From Lachnospiraceae bacterium (GTDB lineage Bacteria; Bacillota; Clostridia; Lachnospirales; Lachnospiraceae): DNA of 64,000 nucleotides. The translations under genes and the position numbers were made by a program. This document shows, in pieces, positions 8 through 6,948 of this stretch. Position 1 is the first letter of the stretch. The number at the start of each line of letters is the position of its first letter. The stretch lies in assembly GCA_017535945.1 (NCBI GenBank), contig JAFXTJ010000007.1:1911-65910 (forward strand), in the 5' to 3' direction. Under the pieces are notes generated by a model that was not told where the DNA came from, ran no database searches, and saw nothing but the letters and a program-made list of their open reading frames with translations.

Positions 8-2074
8 TTGAACGATCATTCCTTACAAAACGCGAGAACCCATAATACCGTGATCGGCATCCTGACGGTCGCCAGCCTCGGCGCGATCTCGGGCAGTATC
101 TCACTCGGGTGGGAAAACTGGGTGACGCCGCTCATGATCATCGGCCTCATCGCCGCATGGATCCTGCATTTTTCCCAATACGGAGAGGAGAGGACCAGAG
201 AGAATTATTATCTGATCTTCACGATGCTGGTCTCGTTTTATCACGGAATCCACCGGTCCAGTTTCTTTGATATCGTCGTCGTATCCGCACTGATGATGGT
301 CAATGTGACGCTCCTTCGCCGCAAGGAATTCGTGGCGCTCATGCTGATCGAATTCTTCGCGCTCATGACGGAGCAGATTCTGGCCGGTGTCCGCATGGGC
401 ACGCTCACTCTCGATACGATGACCGTCGCACGGATCCTCCTGCATGTGGTTGCTGAGCTGTGCATCTACAAGGGACTGAGCGATGTGATCCGCAACAACC
501 GCAAGGATGCAGAGGAACTGGAGATCCTCCGGCAGGAAAAGGAGTCCGTCCGCAACGAAATGGAGGATTTCCTGGTCAACATCTCGCACGAGCTGCGTAC
601 GCCCGTCAATGTCATCAACGGGATGTCCGCGATGCTGCTTAACAGGGAAAACAGCAAGGATGTGCTTTCGATCAGGGAAGCCGGCATCCGTCTTTCCCGT
701 CAGATCGAGGACATTCAGGATTACAGCGAGATCCAGCGCGGGGATGTGCATCTGGAGGAGGAACGTTATCAGATCACGTCGGTGATCAATGATATCATCG
801 CGGATTACCGGGCGGCCGGGGCAGAGAGCGGCAAGGATTTTGTCATCGACCTGGATCCGGACGTGCCTGCGATCTTAAAAGGTGATGCGGGCAAGATCAG
901 CAAGATCATACGGCATCTTCTGGATAACGCATACAAGTTCACCGCACAGGGCGGCTTTATCCTCAAAGTGCGCGCTGACAGGAGAGAATACGGAATCAAT
1001 CTGATCATCGAAGTGACTGATACCGGTATCGGCATGAGCCGGGATGAGATCGACGGCATCGCGCGCGGGCTGTATCAGGGAGACAAGAAACGCAACCGCA
1101 AAACCGGCGGTGTCGGACTCGGGCTTTCCATTGTCTATGGCTTTGTACGCAGGATGAACGGGTTCGTCAATATCGAAAGCAGGCGCGGCAAAGGTACGAC
1201 CGTCAGGGTCTGCATCGCACAGGAGATCATCGATCCGGCACCCTGCCTGCACGTGGATGGGGAACGGTTCCTTAATGTCGCCGTGTATCTGGATCCCGAG
1301 AGGTTTGCGGTTCCGGAGGCTGCTGAATTCCACCGGCTTATGGCCGCGCATCTCGCTGCGGGTCTCAGGATCAATCTTTACTCCGCTCCGAATCTTTCGG
1401 AGCTTGGCAGACTCATGGAACATGAGGATATCACTCATGTTTTCACCAGTGAGGAGGACTATCTGAGATCGCCGGATCATTTCGAAGAACTGGCCAAAGG
1501 CGGTGTGACAGTTGCGGTGTCTGCCTGGGACGGATTCCAGCCGGCACCCGGAAGTCCTGTGATCACCATGCCGAGACCCCTGTGCTCCTGTACGGTCGTG
1601 CGGATCCTTTCCGGAGAGAACGAACCTTTCATTCTGCCCGAGGGCGAGGAGGAGAGAAGGATTGTCCTGGACGGCATCCGTGCACTTGTGGTGGATGATG
1701 AACCGATGAACCTGGTGGTGGCCGAGGGACTCTTCAGGGGCTATCATATGATCATCGATACGGCTGAGAGCGGCCCCCAGGCACTCAAAAAATACGCGCA
1801 CAATCAATATGATGTGGTCTTCATGGACCATATGATGCCGGGCATGGACGGGATAGAGGCTGCGGGCCGGATCCGCGAGATCGCCGCATCCCGCGGGAGG
1901 AGCGCGCGGATCGTGGCACTGACTGCCAATGCGGTGAGCGGTGCGCGGGAGATGTTCATGCGTGAGGGATTTGACGGTTTCATCAGCAAGCCGATCCGGA
2001 TCAGCGAATTTGAGAGGACGATGGGCAGATTATTCCCTGCCGGCGGATCCGTTCCGGCGAGGAGCGTCTCATGA
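8..2074 (+). CDS. Membrane-bound hybrid sensor histidine kinase (multi-TM, HisKA, HATPase_c, degenerate REC, REC); the start may lie upstream of the window edge
   Basis: H-box NISHELRTPVN, N-box HLLDNAYKFT, G1 DTGIGM, G2 GGVGLGLSI; C-terminal receiver LVVDDE...FMDHMMPGMDG...LTAN...ISKP; about 5 hydrophobic N-terminal segments. Confidence 0.93.
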   Translation: MNDHSLQNARTHNTVIGILTVASLGAISGSISLGWENWVTPLMIIGLIAAWILHFSQYGEERTRENYYLIFTMLVSFYHGIHRSSFFDIVVVSALMMVNVTLLRRKEFVALMLIEFFALMTEQILAGVRMGTLTLDTMTVARILLHVVAELCIYKGLSDVIRNNRKDAEELEILRQEKESVRNEMEDFLVNISHELRTPVNVINGMSAMLLNRENSKDVLSIREAGIRLSRQIEDIQDYSEIQRGDVHLEEERYQITSVINDIIADYRAAGAESGKDFVIDLDPDVPAILKGDAGKISKIIRHLLDNAYKFTAQGGFILKVRADRREYGINLIIEVTDTGIGMSRDEIDGIARGLYQGDKKRNRKTGGVGLGLSIVYGFVRRMNGFVNIESRRGKGTTVRVCIAQEIIDPAPCLHVDGERFLNVAVYLDPERFAVPEAAEFHRLMAAHLAAGLRINLYSAPNLSELGRLMEHEDITHVFTSEEDYLRSPDHFEELAKGGVTVAVSAWDGFQPAPGSPVITMPRPLCSCTVVRILSGENEPFILPEGEEERRIVLDGIRALVVDDEPMNLVVAEGLFRGYHMIIDTAESGPQALKKYAHNQYDVVFMDHMMPGMDGIEAAGRIREIAASRGRSARIVALTANAVSGAREMFMREGFDGFISKPIRISEFERTMGRLFPAGGSVPARSVS

Positions 2075-5000
2075 AGTTCTACACGCGGTTAAAGACTCTG
2101 ATCCTTGATCCGGCCCGGAATTTCAGGGAGCGGCTATTTATCCTGCTGACGCTCGTCGCTGTCATGATCGCCGGGATCGCGCTGCTCGGCGATATCCTCT
2201 ACGGCGAGAATATCGTTGAGATCATCACCCTGATCGCTACCGTGATCATCGTACCGTTATTGACCTATATCGGCTTAAAATGCGACCGGACGCGCTACGC
2301 TGCCAGAACGATCGCATTCAGCAACAGCCTCTTCATCATGCCGGTCATATTCTTTTTCGGCGGCGGTATGCAGGGCGGTGCGATCCCCTGGCTGGTTTTC
2401 TCCTATCTTTACATCGGCCTCGTGCTCGCAGGCAGGTGGCGTGCCTCTGCACTGCTTGTTCATACGCTGGTAGTTTCGATCTCGTTCACTCTCGGATATC
2501 TCCATCCGGAACTGGTGCATCCGCATTCCGAAAGACTGTTCTATTTCGATGCACTGGGAGGCGTGCTGGAAGTCGGACTGGCCTGCGTGATCATGACCTG
2601 GTTCCAGAGTTTTCTGTATATGCAGGAGAATGAGCGCGTCAAAGGGGAAACGCGCAAGGTCGAGGATCTCTACCGTTCGCAGAACAGATTCTTCTCGAGC
2701 ATGAGTCATGAGTTCAGGACACCGATCAATTCCATTCTGGGACTAAATGAGATCATCATCCGTCAGGAGGATGCATCGGAGGAGATCGTACGCGATGCGC
2801 GGAATATCCAGGGCGCCGGCCGGATGCTGCTTGCCCTGATCAACGATATCCTGGATTTCTCCAAGATCGAAGCGGGACGGATGGACATCGTGCCTGTCAA
2901 CTACAGTGTGGCATCGATGGTCTCCGACATCGTCAATATGATCTGGCTTCGCGCGGACCAGAAGGGGCTTGATCTAATAGTTGAGGTGGATCCGTCCATC
3001 CCGTCGGAGCTCTTCGGCGATGAGGTCCGCATCAAGCAGATCCTGATCAACCTGCTCAACAATGCGGTGAAATATACGACAGAGGGATCCGTCACGCTCC
3101 ATATCGAAAAAGAAGATATCAGGGACGACCGGGTCCTGCTGATGTTCTCCGTTATCGATACGGGAGCCGGGATCAAGCAGGATTCCCTGCCGTATCTGTT
3201 TGACGCATTCCGGCGTGTGGATGAAGAGAACAATACCGGGATCGAGGGGACCGGACTGGGACTTTCCATCGTGAAGCAGCTCGTTGAACTGATGGACGGC
3301 AAGGTCACGGTCAACAGCGTCTACACACAGGGCTCCACCTTTATGGTCACACTCTGGCAGAAGATCGCCCGTTTTGATCCCGTCGGGGAGATCCGGGTCA
3401 CCGGCGCGGGCGGATCCGTCAGGGAGGAAAGATACCATGCGGGGTTCACCGCTCCCGATGCAAGGATCCTGATCGTGGATGACAACGAGATGAATCTCGA
3501 GGTCGAGAAGAAACTTTTACGTGAGACCCGGATCGCTGTGGATACGGTATCCGGCGGTGAAGAAGCGCTCTCCATGACAGGATACGTGCGTTATGATCTG
3601 ATCCTGATGGATCATCTGATGCCGGGAATGGACGGGATCACCTGCATGCAGCAGATCCGCAAGCGGGAGGACAGTCTCAACGCCCATGTGCCGATCGTCG
3701 TGCTGACGGCAAATGCGGGCAGCGAGAACCGGGAGCTCTACGGCAACAGCGGATTTGACGGTTATCTCGTAAAACCGGTGACCGGGCTGCAACTCGAAGA
3801 GTGTATCCTGAATCATCTTCCGGTCTCCAAGGTGAACCGGACGGAAGAAGCACAGAAGGACGTACACAGATTAATTACCGCCGGCAGTTACATCCGCAAG
3901 ATCCCGGTGCTCATTGTCACGAATACGGCGGCAGAACTGCCGGCAGAGGTGCTGGAAGCACACGGGATCGATGTCATCCCCTTCAATATCCATCTGGGGG
4001 ATAAAGTCTATCATGACTCCATGGAGACCAACACGGAGGAGCTGATACGCTACGCGGCCGCGGGAATGCAGATGTATGCCGATGCTCCAGCAGTCTCTGA
4101 ATTCGAGGTCTTCTTCGGGCGTGCGCTGAAAAAGGCGCACAATATCATCTACATCACGGCATCCGCCGCCATCAGCCCCGAATATGACAAAGCGGTCTCG
4201 GCGGCAAAGGCTTACGGGAACGTGCTTGTCTATGATTCGGGTGCCAGCTCCGCCAGCATCGGTCTGATGGCGCTTTTTGCGAATAAACTCAGTTCCCAGG
4301 GCAGATCTCCGGAACGGATCATCGTCGAACTGGATCATATGAAAAAGCGGCTGCACAGCAGTTTCATGACGGACGGCTCCTATTTCGCCCAGAGCAGGAG
4401 CAGGAGGGATACGGGGATCTACAATCTCATGCAGCTGTTCAGCGTCCGCCCCATCATCGGGATCCATGGCGGCAGATACCGCATGGAGCGGATCGTCATG
4501 GGCGAGCAGAAACGCTGTTACGAGAAATATATCGATCAGGCGCTGCCTGTTTATGTACAGCCGGATCCGGATCTGCTCATCGTCGTCTATGTGGGGCTTA
4601 CGGACGGGCAGAAGGAATTCATCAGAGAGCGGATCGCAAAAAGATGCGCTTTCCGTTCGGTGGTGTTCTTAAAGGCCTGCGGCGCCTTTGCGATGAACTG
4701 CGGGCCCGGTTCCGTCGGACTCGTCTATTCCGAAGCCGGAGATCAGGAGTATCATCTGAGCAGCATGTTCCGCATTCTGGAGGACGAGGATACCGGCACG
4801 AAGCCCGGGGAGCCGGATGACACAGCGGGGAGTGCGCAGCCTGCTCCGCCGCGCGATCCGGAACGGATCCCTGTCGAGGAAAAGAAGTGGTATGAGACGA
4901 TACCGGGCATCAACGGCAGGCAGGGTATCGAATACAGCGGTTCAGAGGAGGCCTATCGGGAACTGCTGCAGATCTTCTGCGGATCTGTCGGACAGAAGCA

Positions 5001-5511
5001 GGCGGAGATCGAGGGATACTATACCGCGGAGGACTGGGAGAACTATACGATCAAGGTCCATGCGCTCAAGAGTTCCGCGCGTCTGGCCGGAGCCGAACAG
5101 CTCGCAAAGGAAGCGCAGGCGCTGGAGGATGCCGGTAATGCGGCGGATATCGCGTACATCAGGTCTCATCACGCCGGAGTCATGTCAGGGCTTGCCGAAC
5201 TGGCGGGCAGACTCTCTCCGCTGTTTGCACAGGATGCGGGCGGGACCTCCACGGAGGACGTTACCGCGGCGAAACACCGGATCGATCTCTCCGATGCGTT
5301 TGACCGGGAACTGATCGGCTGCCTGTATGAGGTCCTGAGGAACGGGGCGTCCGAAAAAGACGGGGCTGTCATCGAAGAAGCCCTGCATGAGATCGGCGAA
5401 TATGAACTGCCTCCGGAGATGGCAGAGTTTATCACGGATATCAGGGAAAAATATGCGGCAGAGGATTATGACGGGATCCGGTCCCTGATCGACGGGAGAG
5501 ACGCCCTATGA
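2071..5511 (+). CDS. Hybrid sensor histidine kinase with TM region, HisKA, HATPase_c, REC, an inserted DegV (FakB-like) domain and Hpt
   Basis: SMSHEFRTPIN, NLLNNAVKYT, DTGAGI, GTGLGLSI; REC LIVDDN...LMDHLMPGMDG; DegV-like block at about 3898-4731 (IVTNTAAELP...IDVIPFNI...YDSGASSASIG...NCGPGSVGLVY); Hpt IKVHALKSSARLAGA; ATGA overlap with the upstream kinase. Confidence 0.9.
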   Translation: MKFYTRLKTLILDPARNFRERLFILLTLVAVMIAGIALLGDILYGENIVEIITLIATVIIVPLLTYIGLKCDRTRYAARTIAFSNSLFIMPVIFFFGGGMQGGAIPWLVFSYLYIGLVLAGRWRASALLVHTLVVSISFTLGYLHPELVHPHSERLFYFDALGGVLEVGLACVIMTWFQSFLYMQENERVKGETRKVEDLYRSQNRFFSSMSHEFRTPINSILGLNEIIIRQEDASEEIVRDARNIQGAGRMLLALINDILDFSKIEAGRMDIVPVNYSVASMVSDIVNMIWLRADQKGLDLIVEVDPSIPSELFGDEVRIKQILINLLNNAVKYTTEGSVTLHIEKEDIRDDRVLLMFSVIDTGAGIKQDSLPYLFDAFRRVDEENNTGIEGTGLGLSIVKQLVELMDGKVTVNSVYTQGSTFMVTLWQKIARFDPVGEIRVTGAGGSVREERYHAGFTAPDARILIVDDNEMNLEVEKKLLRETRIAVDTVSGGEEALSMTGYVRYDLILMDHLMPGMDGITCMQQIRKREDSLNAHVPIVVLTANAGSENRELYGNSGFDGYLVKPVTGLQLEECILNHLPVSKVNRTEEAQKDVHRLITAGSYIRKIPVLIVTNTAAELPAEVLEAHGIDVIPFNIHLGDKVYHDSMETNTEELIRYAAAGMQMYADAPAVSEFEVFFGRALKKAHNIIYITASAAISPEYDKAVSAAKAYGNVLVYDSGASSASIGLMALFANKLSSQGRSPERIIVELDHMKKRLHSSFMTDGSYFAQSRSRRDTGIYNLMQLFSVRPIIGIHGGRYRMERIVMGEQKRCYEKYIDQALPVYVQPDPDLLIVVYVGLTDGQKEFIRERIAKRCAFRSVVFLKACGAFAMNCGPGSVGLVYSEAGDQEYHLSSMFRILEDEDTGTKPGEPDDTAGSAQPAPPRDPERIPVEEKKWYETIPGINGRQGIEYSGSEEAYRELLQIFCGSVGQKQAEIEGYYTAEDWENYTIKVHALKSSARLAGAEQLAKEAQALEDAGNAADIAYIRSHHAGVMSGLAELAGRLSPLFAQDAGGTSTEDVTAAKHRIDLSDAFDRELIGCLYEVLRNGASEKDGAVIEEALHEIGEYELPPEMAEFITDIREKYAAEDYDGIRSLIDGRDAL

Positions 5512-5617
5512 AGAAGGGAAACACGGTATGCCAATGAGCCCATGCGCAGGGATACGGTGAAAGATGAAAACACTGCGCAAACAGAATAATTTTTGTCATA
5601 GTTTTTCGTCAGAAATA

Positions 5618-5626
5618 TGTTATAAT
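5618..5626 (+). promoter_or_regulatory. Extended -10 promoter (TGnTATAAT) for degV
   Basis: tgttataat in an AT-rich intergenic region; RBS aggaaggag precedes ATG 5668. Confidence 0.6.
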
Positions 5627-5667
5627 TTCTAAATGGTTTCAGAGTTTGCATCAAGGAAGGAGCAGAC

Positions 5668-6522
5668 ATGGTCAAGGTGATCTCAGACAGTACCAGCGAT
5701 CTCGGCAGGAGCCTGATGGACCGGTATGATGTGGAGATGATCCCGCTGCATGTGTATCTGGGTGAGGAAGAATATCTGGACGGAGTGAACATATCCCCGG
5801 ATCAGATCTACAGATGGGCGGATGAACATAACACGACTCCCAAGACCTCCGCACCGAATCTGGAGGATGTGATCGGTGTGTTTGACAGTCATTTAAAGGC
5901 CGGCGACGATCTGATCGTGTTTACGGTCTCCTCCTCCATGAGTTCCAGTTACAATGTCTGCCGTCTGGCGGTGGAGGAACTGGAGGCCGCGGACAGGATA
6001 AAGATCATCGATTCCGCCAATCTCTCGACCGGTGTCGGTCTGCTTGTCATAGAAGCTGCCATTATGGCTTCGAAAGGGCAGGATCTCGGAGCAATCGAGG
6101 AGCAGATCCTGAAATACCGTCCGCTCGTCCGGGCGAGTTTCGTCGTTGATACGCTGGTCTATCTCTACCGCGGCGGACGCTGCTCCGGACTGGCAGCCCT
6201 TGCTGGAAGCGCGTTGAAGATCCATCCCAGGATCGTCGTGGAGAACGGAGCGATGCGCTCCGACCGGAAATACCGCGGATCTCTGGACAAATCGATCCTA
6301 ACCTATGTACAGGACATGGAGGAGCAGCTGGTACGCGCCAAGAAGGACCGCGTCTTTATCACGCACTCCGGGTGCGAATCCCATATCGTTGATCAGGTAC
6401 GCGCCTATCTCTCCGGACTGGAGCGCTTTGACGAGATCATTGAGACGCGTGCGGGCGGTGTCATCTCTTCGCACTGCGGTCCCGCGACACTGGGCGTTCT
6501 GTTCATCGCCGGGGAAGACTGA
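5668..6522 (+). CDS. DegV family fatty-acid-binding protein (FakB-like)
   Basis: KVISDSTSDL, PKTSAP, SSSMSSSY, IDSANLSTG, LYRGGR, SHCGP motifs. Confidence 0.95.
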   Translation: MVKVISDSTSDLGRSLMDRYDVEMIPLHVYLGEEEYLDGVNISPDQIYRWADEHNTTPKTSAPNLEDVIGVFDSHLKAGDDLIVFTVSSSMSSSYNVCRLAVEELEAADRIKIIDSANLSTGVGLLVIEAAIMASKGQDLGAIEEQILKYRPLVRASFVVDTLVYLYRGGRCSGLAALAGSALKIHPRIVVENGAMRSDRKYRGSLDKSILTYVQDMEEQLVRAKKDRVFITHSGCESHIVDQVRAYLSGLERFDEIIETRAGGVISSHCGPATLGVLFIAGED

Positions 6523-6527
6523 TACAC

Positions 6528-6893
6528 ATGGCGACCGACGAGACAACACAGATCATCATCGACAATGCGGCTGCGGCGGATGAGTCCGTCTACATGAAGT
6601 ACAAGCAGCTGAAGAAGGTGAACAAAGCGAAGCTGACTTCTTATCTGGAGCGGCTGATCGAACTGCAGCAGGTCGAGGATGAACTCTCTGAGGATCTCTC
6701 CGAAAGAAAACGGCGCCATGAGGAGGCCATGCTGGAAGCGATCAATGCCATGGGAGATGAGGTGGCCTGCTCTTTCTGCGGCAAGAAGAAATCCGAGGGC
6801 ACCAATATCGTCACATCACCGGCCGGCGCCTGCATCTGCGAGGAGTGTGTCGCTCTCTGCGGCGACATCTTCGCGGGACGCGCGCGGCGATAA
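6528..6893 (+). CDS. Small protein with a coiled coil and a ClpX-type C4 zinc-binding domain
   Basis: CSFCGKKKSEGTNIVTSPAGACICEECVALC matches the ClpX N-terminal zinc-finger pattern; no ATPase domain. Confidence 0.8.
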   Translation: MATDETTQIIIDNAAAADESVYMKYKQLKKVNKAKLTSYLERLIELQQVEDELSEDLSERKRRHEEAMLEAINAMGDEVACSFCGKKKSEGTNIVTSPAGACICEECVALCGDIFAGRARR

Positions 6894-6902
6894 AGATCAT
6901 AC

Positions 6903-6948
6903 TGTCAAGAGAAAATACTTGACACCATACACACCCCTGTGGTATCGT
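6903..6948 (+). promoter_or_regulatory. Sigma-A promoter of ylxM-ffh with an overlapping palindrome
   Basis: TTGACA 6919-6924 and TGgTATCGT 6940-6948; inverted repeat TGTCAAG-N8-CTTGACA at 6903-6924. Confidence 0.7.

Follow-up and report, generated by a model that had tools for sequence, protein, structure and literature searches.

The window analysed here, a stretch of 64,000 nucleotides from a rumen Lachnospiraceae bacterium (G000:C100:1911-65910, i.e., part of contig C100 of its genome), begins with two membrane hybrid histidine kinases, HK1 and HK2, and HK2 carries a domain of the DegV family between its receiver (REC) and its histidine phosphotransfer (Hpt) domain. Two-component systems are the main sensing devices of bacteria, and to our knowledge no cytoplasmic lipid-binding input module has been established for them. 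The locus raises the question of what a fatty-acid-carrier fold, known from the FakB proteins, is doing inside a phosphorelay. An initial annotation of this DNA had proposed a fatty-acid-sensing relay in which the DegV domain gates phosphotransfer in cis, with a free DegV gene and a small ClpX-type zinc-finger gene downstream as further members. The comparative analysis described below points to a different reading, namely that the domain is derived from FakB and acts as a regulatory or lipid-sensing module in a relay of two kinases towards cyclic di-GMP (c-di-GMP), which we hold tentatively, at a little under an even chance.

A DegV domain in a coupled kinase pair

The window starts 7 bases upstream of the TTG-initiated open reading frame of HK1, a gene that is complete on its contig. 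The ATGA overlap from which translational coupling of the two kinases had been proposed is present at 2071-2074 (sequence context CATGAAG). In HK2, Pfam bore out the domain order HisKA-HATPase-REC-DegV-Hpt, and the Hpt histidine, placed initially at about 5059, is His997 at that same position. The embedded domain matches positions 2-278 of the 280 of the DegV profile PF02645 (E = 4.5e-32, 112 bits), in keeping with the complete DegV-like domain first noted between REC and Hpt. Sequence comparison with solved chains gave T. thermophilus DegV (2DT8, 2.8e-17), S. aureus FakB2 (4X9X, 8.5e-14) and S. aureus FakB1 (about 1e-9) as matches, indicating that a genuine DegV fold lies inside this hybrid kinase. 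HK2 has the full set of hybrid-kinase signatures (H-box His, N and G boxes, receiver Asp, Hpt His), with H213, D514 and H997 invariant in 59/59. Its membrane region is weakly MASE11-like (Pfam E = 0.011, below the cut-off). HK1 contains HisKA, HATPase and REC by Pfam, with Hpt absent, and at least four transmembrane (TM) helices by hydropathy; its H196 and D609 are invariant across 43/43 orthologues, and its N and G boxes are present. The coordinates of these features are given in Table 1.

Table 1. Positions of the kinase pair, its domains and the two genes downstream, in window coordinates
Feature	Position	Strand	Basis and remarks
HK1, membrane hybrid histidine kinase	8-2074	+	TTG start, 688 aa
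HK1 catalytic core	560-1219 (HisKA 560-742, HATPase 881-1219)	+	Pfam
HK1 pseudo-receiver, middle domain of about 150 residues (predicted)	1214-1681	+	receiver fold, no Pfam REC signature
HK1 true receiver, phospho-Asp D609	1685-2011	+	Pfam
HK2, TM-HisKA-HATPase-REC-DegV-S-Hpt ("long form")	2071-5511	+	1146 aa
HK2 membrane sensor region, about 6 predicted TM helices, short loops	2134-2592	+	hydropathy
HK2 kinase core and receiver	2680-3801 (HisKA 2680-2877, HATPase 3016-3357, REC 3466-3801)	+	Pfam; residues 204-269, 316-429 and 466-577
HK2 embedded DegV-S domain, FakB-derived	3907-4731	+	Pfam, PDB sequence matches, family alignments; residues 613-887
HK2 Hpt domain, single tail Hpt of the pair, His997 at 5059-5061	4960-5139	+	Pfam; residues 964-1023
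HK2 C-terminal tail after Hpt, poorly conserved	5140-5508	+	mean pairwise identity 0.29
Promoter-like element and Shine-Dalgarno sequence before free degV	5593-5667	+	consensus matches only
Free DegV/FakB, canonical	5668-6522	+	284 aa; PF02645 E = 2.5e-64, 217.8 bits
ClpX-type zinc-finger protein	6528-6893	+	121 aa; PF06689 E = 3.2e-12

A search with the DegV-Hpt half of HK2 returned at least 250 proteins of the same five-domain order (33-50% identity), which NCBI labels only as "DegV family EDD domain-containing protein". The fusion was located in 43 genomic loci, almost entirely from rumen Lachnospiraceae, including the cultured Butyrivibrio sp. MC2021 and LC3010 and Lachnospiraceae bacterium AD3010, NC2004 and V9D3004. 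The genome to which the window belongs (2.65 Mb, 82% complete) contains five paralogous cassettes, on contigs C100, C139, C24, C107 and C1. A one-off fusion or an assembly chimera is ruled out by these five paralogues together with hundreds of independent assemblies and isolates. An exhaustive profile search over 1.84 billion representatives yielded 17,384 matches at E <= 0.001 and 1,290 at E <= 1e-30, among which some canonical DegVs may be included. Literature searches found no paper describing a DegV-kinase fusion.

The two kinases belong together. In the 43 loci, the gene directly upstream of HK2 encodes an HK1-type kinase wherever the contig extends far enough, and the 57 HK1/HK2 pairs collected are all spaced by -28 to +31 nt, with the 4-nt ATGA-type overlap in 39 of them. 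The paralogue types of HK1 and HK2 are concordant in 48 of the 57 pairs, and the pair therefore duplicates as a unit. The distribution of the Hpt domain is complementary between the partners. If DegV is the last domain of HK2, the upstream HK1 bears a C-terminal Hpt (17 of 18 loci), a pattern that the C107 and C1 cassettes of the window's genome also follow; if HK2 itself has the Hpt tail, HK1 measures 680-726 aa and lacks Hpt, in about 40 loci with 0 exceptions. Each pair thus owns one tail Hpt, either on HK1 or on HK2, and here it is on HK2. This complementarity and the co-divergence of the pair support the earlier suggestion that HK1, which has no Hpt, probably relays through HK2. Since the Hpt is found on either partner, its position relative to DegV is not essential.

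A comparable arrangement is reportedly found in P. aeruginosa, where the hybrid kinase LadS, which lacks an Hpt, uses that of GacS. Both systems have two membrane kinases and one Hpt, and here too the Hpt-less kinase probably hands its phosphate to the Hpt of its partner. In contrast to LadS and GacS, the present kinases are translationally coupled and their genes duplicate as one unit; in addition, the Hpt has switched partners in the course of evolution, and the pair incorporates a FakB-derived domain and a pseudo-receiver.

The DegV-S branch and its pseudo-receiver partner

In a maximum-likelihood tree of 102 DegV domains, computed by a quick method with support from the Shimodaira-Hasegawa-like approximate likelihood ratio test (SH-aLRT) only, the canonical DegVs split from the kinase-linked branch, here called DegV-S, with a support of 100. 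The domain scores 101-137 bits, vs. 198-247 for the canonical DegVs of the window's genome. DegV-S occurs as the last domain of a kinase (short form), between REC and Hpt (long form), as a stand-alone protein (about 285 aa), N-terminally in kinases, in the usual place of an input domain (DegV-6TM-HisKA-HATPase-REC-Hpt), and with dCache kinases; both DegV subdomains are full-length in every architecture. The 141 best representatives covering most of the profile comprise 57 short, 40 stand-alone, 8 N-terminal and 5 long forms, and 31 fragments or others. In the tree, the stand-alone forms are basal and the short forms come next, the N-terminal forms fall mostly in one clade (98), and the long forms make up one clade nested deeply in the tree (99). 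The arrangement in the window is therefore the most derived one and not the ground plan of the family, and on this tree the stand-alone form is the ancestral one. The stand-alone genes examined in their genomes (L169-L172) stand directly after an HK1-type kinase with Hpt in 4/4 cases.

The middle domain of HK1 provides the second thread. Pfam returned no match for it, and none to REC even at E <= 10. Its AlphaFold2 model is confident, with a predicted local distance difference test score (pLDDT) of 84.6. Foldseek gave weak receiver matches only; the wide VIA-align search was clear, with almost all of the top 50 being receivers at Z 10.6-12.1 and a root-mean-square deviation of 2.3-2.9 Å over about 108 residues (at the best Z of 12.1, 2.4 Å over 108 residues). 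The consensus after strand 3 is F-M-G-Q-E, and the nearly invariant columns contain no Asp. The domain is predicted on these grounds to be a pseudo-receiver, i.e., to have a receiver fold without the phospho-acceptor signature.

A profile of this domain was used to survey 151 genomes, one per genus. It gave 34 matches in 24 of them, 33 of which lie within about 4 kb of a kinase-linked DegV on the same contig and strand, and no match in those surveyed genomes that have canonical DegVs only. In two HK1-type kinases (L166:7249-9834 of genome G142, and G058:C32:43219-44559), DegV-S follows directly after the pseudo-receiver and the true receiver is missing; in L166, a direct fusion of the two domains, HisKA is also below Pfam detection. 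The constant partner of DegV-S is thus the pseudo-receiver of an HK1-type kinase, adjacent in 33 of 34 matches, with one direct fusion.

Binding-site residues and the proposed role of DegV-S

In FakB, the carboxylate is bound by Thr61, Ser93 and His264 (PMC10848957). Arg170 (Arg173 in FakB1) lies at the tunnel mouth, and the R173A variant, though still able to exchange fatty acid, shows no activity in the kinase assay (PMC9136124). Docking on FakA involves Arg202 and Leu181 (PMC10848957, PMC9136124). Alignment of the window copy with S. aureus FakB2 and T. thermophilus DegV placed Ala670 at Thr61, Ser702 at Ser93, Arg779 at Arg170, Asn at His264 and Met at the docking Arg. The carboxylate triad (Thr61/Ser93/His264-266) accordingly reads Ala-Ser-Asn, vs. 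the branch consensus Ser/Ser/Asn, and the FakA-docking residue (Arg202/205) is gone.

The same sites were tallied across the architectures. Twelve canonical DegVs have T/S at Thr61 and Ser at Ser93 and Arg at Arg170 in all 12, His (10) or Tyr (2) at His264, and Arg at Arg202 in 11. The 39 short forms have S/T (32), Ser (20), R/K (28) and Asn (36) at the first four sites, and the 119 long forms S/T (103), Ser (96), Arg (13) and Asn (88), with a hydrophobic residue at Arg202 in both. A second tally, made on representatives from the exhaustive search (one per 50%-identity cluster), gave S/T in 37, Ser in 30, R/K in 29, Asn in 32 and the docking Arg in 0 of 40 stand-alone forms, and S/T in 37, Ser in 18 with Gly in 23, R/K in 28 and Asn in 45 of 57 short forms. 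Asn thus replaces His in 74-92% of kinase-linked forms. Basic residues at the Arg170 site are common in the short (28/39) and stand-alone (29/40) forms and kept in the window copy, and Arg is rare there in the long ones (13/119). At the docking site, nearly every kinase-linked form has a hydrophobic residue, and one long-form subclade contains a single Arg. This loss makes a link to FakAB chemistry unlikely, and DegV-S is probably not a FakA substrate. Of the initial proposal, the DegV fold within a kinase is supported and a connection to FakAB is not.

A further column of the domain has a pattern of its own. His690, in a "KAH" motif at about 4138-4140, is invariant in 113 of 119 long-form DegV domains; canonical DegVs mostly have Asp or Tyr there, and short forms Gln, Asn or Glu. 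It was considered as the phospho-acceptor of an EDD-type phosphotransfer domain, but the residues of the short forms speak against a catalytic role throughout the branch.

The favoured reading can be put as follows. DegV-S would no longer be a substrate carrier of the fatty acid kinase, and would instead regulate the kinase pair, as a subunit or a domain. Judging from its conserved positions, it most likely still binds a fatty-acid-like amphiphile from the nearby membrane. It would dock on the HK1 pseudo-receiver, and its ligand state would tune the phosphate passed from the HK1 and HK2 receivers to the shared Hpt. From there phosphate would go to the tandem receivers of a protein called X-REC, described below, and to GGDEF, EAL or HD-GYP enzymes, with c-di-GMP as the output. 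The window cassette may depend on partners encoded elsewhere, because no X-REC or GGDEF gene is adjacent to it. The narrower proposal, that DegV-S is a dedicated cytoplasmic lipid sensor (for fatty acid, possibly acyl-phosphate) that docks on the pseudo-receiver and so sets a two-kinase, one-Hpt relay to c-di-GMP, is offered with more reserve, as a possibility well short of even.

The triad differs in constancy between the long-form subclades. It is nearly invariant in the C24-type (S/T, S and N in 43, 43 and 40 of 44) and the C139-type (13, 13 and 12 of 13), though their DegV domains are only about 50% identical overall. However, several observations weigh against the favoured reading. The C100-type subclade, to which the window belongs, has a relaxed triad (S/T 46/62, S 40/62, N 36/62), the window copy itself carries Ala at the Thr61 site, and the second Ser is often Gly in the DegV-terminal forms (23/57). 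Identity of the DegV domain is 0.46 vs. 0.80 for the kinase core, a rate about that of the linker-poor sensor parts, and this fast evolution could equally mean weak constraint. Ligand binding is read from conserved positions, and docking on the pseudo-receiver from co-occurrence and one fusion. In the closest orthologues, HK2 is followed by X-REC and GGDEF-like genes, which the window cassette lacks. Fatty-acid sensing by DegV-S is best called plausible on present residue patterns, and it is weakest for the window copy, with its Ala-Ser-Arg-Asn and its subclade of relaxed headgroup sites.

The headgroup site is relaxed both in the subclade of the window copy and in many of the short forms, which favours the first alternative, namely that DegV-S has lost lipid binding and is a ligand-free structural or docking scaffold keeping HK1 and HK2 (or the Hpt and X-REC) in contact, with the signal entering via the membrane domains alone. 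Both kinases do have multi-TM sensor regions of their own, and the strict pairing with the pseudo-receiver needs protein-protein contact only. Against a scaffold speak a Ser-Ser-Asn triad that is nearly invariant in two long-form subclades despite their divergence, the S/T-S-K/R-N kept in the basal stand-alone forms, and the full length of both subdomains in every architecture. We regard it as unlikely, while ranking it next after the favoured reading.

The cis-gate of the initial annotation, in which the DegV domain between the REC and Hpt of HK2 reads fatty acid or acyl-phosphate together with the free DegV and the zinc-finger protein, is improbable. The REC-DegV-Hpt order is real and conserved in one clade of more than 100 proteins, and the acyl-phosphate-stabilising Arg of FakB is present in the window copy. 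However, that order is derived, as DegV in most members is not followed by an Hpt, or is a stand-alone protein or at the N-terminus; in addition, the two downstream genes are not syntenic with the kinases elsewhere, and the FakA-docking Arg is lost. A similarly low probability attaches to the proposal that DegV-S is a receiver-controlled effector, i.e., that phosphorylation of the HK2 REC switches a DegV output such as fatty acid sequestration or release, or interference with FakA, PlsX or PlsY. DegV is terminal after REC in most members, the usual place of an output domain, and the genome encodes one FakA (Dak2 domain, contig C1) and four canonical free DegVs of the FakB type. Against this, the docking Arg is absent, the stand-alone and N-terminal forms lack a REC in cis, a low-copy membrane kinase would presumably be a poor lipid buffer, and the cassettes have candidate outputs of their own (X-REC, GGDEF and HD-GYP proteins). 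That acyl-phosphate held by DegV-S donates its phosphoryl group to a neighbouring receiver, coupling the acyl-phosphate pool to signalling, is very improbable: receivers do use small acyl phosphates such as acetyl phosphate as donors, and the R170 position is basic in stand-alone forms, many short forms and the window copy, but most long forms have lost this Arg, both kinases have intact ATP-dependent cores, and loading of DegV-S with acyl-phosphate without FakA docking has no support.

Compared with the FakB and DegV proteins of known structure or function (S. aureus FakB1 and FakB2, S. suis FakB2 7W7H, T. thermophilus DegV 2DT8), DegV-S shares the full-length two-subdomain fold and, across the branch, a hydroxyl-bearing residue and a Ser at the carboxylate site, often together with a basic residue. 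It differs in being encoded inside or beside histidine kinases, in the hydrophobic replacement of the docking Arg and in the change of His to Asn. Lipid status is connected to two-component systems elsewhere, as in DesK, a kinase that senses membrane fluidity. The S. aureus SaeRS system depends on fatty acid kinase (PMC5539427). In contrast to the present relay, of which a FakB-type fold is part, the kinases of those two systems are not known to have a built-in or dedicated lipid-binding fold.

A fatty-acid-carrier fold has here been recruited into kinases as a distinct branch with an obligate pseudo-receiver partner and a recurring link to c-di-GMP enzymes. If the narrower lipid-sensor proposal is true, two-component systems would have a sensory input of a new class, one that is widespread among Clostridia of rumen and gut. 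Butyrivibrio-type bacteria of the rumen are exposed to toxic unsaturated fatty acids, which are biohydrogenated in the rumen and gut, and lipid sensing by DegV-S, if it occurs, would link fatty-acid status directly to the control of their lifestyle. The comparative rules (one Hpt per pair, pseudo-receiver with DegV-S, stand-alone form ancestral) make the system directly testable; its simplest members consist of an HK1-type kinase with Hpt and a stand-alone DegV-S of 283 aa, and the cassette is also present in cultured isolates.

Genes around the cassette

The canonical DegV gene and the small ClpX-type zinc-finger gene noted initially downstream of HK2 are both present by Pfam. Their proposed membership of the phosphorelay is ruled out by synteny. 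Within 10 kb of the fusion, a free DegV occurs in 2 of 43 loci and is never adjacent, and a ClpX zinc-finger gene occurs in 0 of 43. Of the kinase-kinase-degV neighbourhood, only the kinase pair is conserved. The free degV is preceded by a spacer of 156 bp with a promoter-like element and a strong Shine-Dalgarno sequence, and is likely a separate transcription unit outside the relay. Its product keeps all FakB signature positions (Thr-Ser-Arg-Arg-His), and FakA is encoded in the genome. Being non-syntenic, with its own promoter-like element and Shine-Dalgarno sequence and all FakB residues, it is an ordinary FakB gene and a chance neighbour.

The 121-aa zinc-finger protein starts 6 nt after the free degV. 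Its N-terminal part is acidic and probably helical. A C4 zinc finger at the C-terminus (residues 80-115) is all that it has of ClpX, in which such a finger stands N-terminally and an AAA+ ATPase follows; a real ClpX is encoded elsewhere in the genome, on contig C74. No such small protein was found in 60 other genera of the family, where the matches are only to the N-terminus of full-length ClpX. On these matches, it is a stand-alone ClpX zinc-finger protein specific to its lineage.

In about half of the fusion loci, X-REC, a protein of about 255 aa, is encoded nearby. It is predicted to consist of a pseudo-REC and a REC in tandem with no output domain, and it aligns with the receiver pair of PleD (Foldseek 3e-12). 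It resembles PleD in these tandem receivers (REC-REC') and differs in having no GGDEF or other output domain, with separate GGDEF, EAL-like and HD-GYP proteins encoded nearby. Other recurrent neighbours are genes for REC-GGDEF, dCache-HisKA-REC-Hpt, EAL-like, GGDEF-like (about 705 aa) and HD-GYP-REC proteins. The best homologue of the GGDEF-like gene in the window's genome is on contig C124.

The genome contains at least six X-REC paralogues (C24:55473-56252, C21:14785-15531, C55:3405-4157, and on C139, C107 and C1), two of which adjoin Hpt-bearing kinases without DegV. Proteins of the order dCache-HisKA-REC-Hpt without HATPase (about 750-770 aa) are conserved upstream of the C24-type cassettes, beside a REC-GGDEF gene; examples are L011:10561-12837 (same genome, contig C24), L040, L043 and L044. 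From their domain content, they look like kinase-dead sensor or phosphotransfer proteins.

At the two edges of the locus, a strong promoter-like site lies at 6919-6948 (TTGACA, 18 nt, TG-TATCGT; 10/12 matches), just before ylxM-ffh, and a 439-aa protein in which TIR_2 is fused to a SAM-dependent methyltransferase domain is encoded directly upstream of HK1 (G000:C100:483-1802, listed as L009:483-1802).

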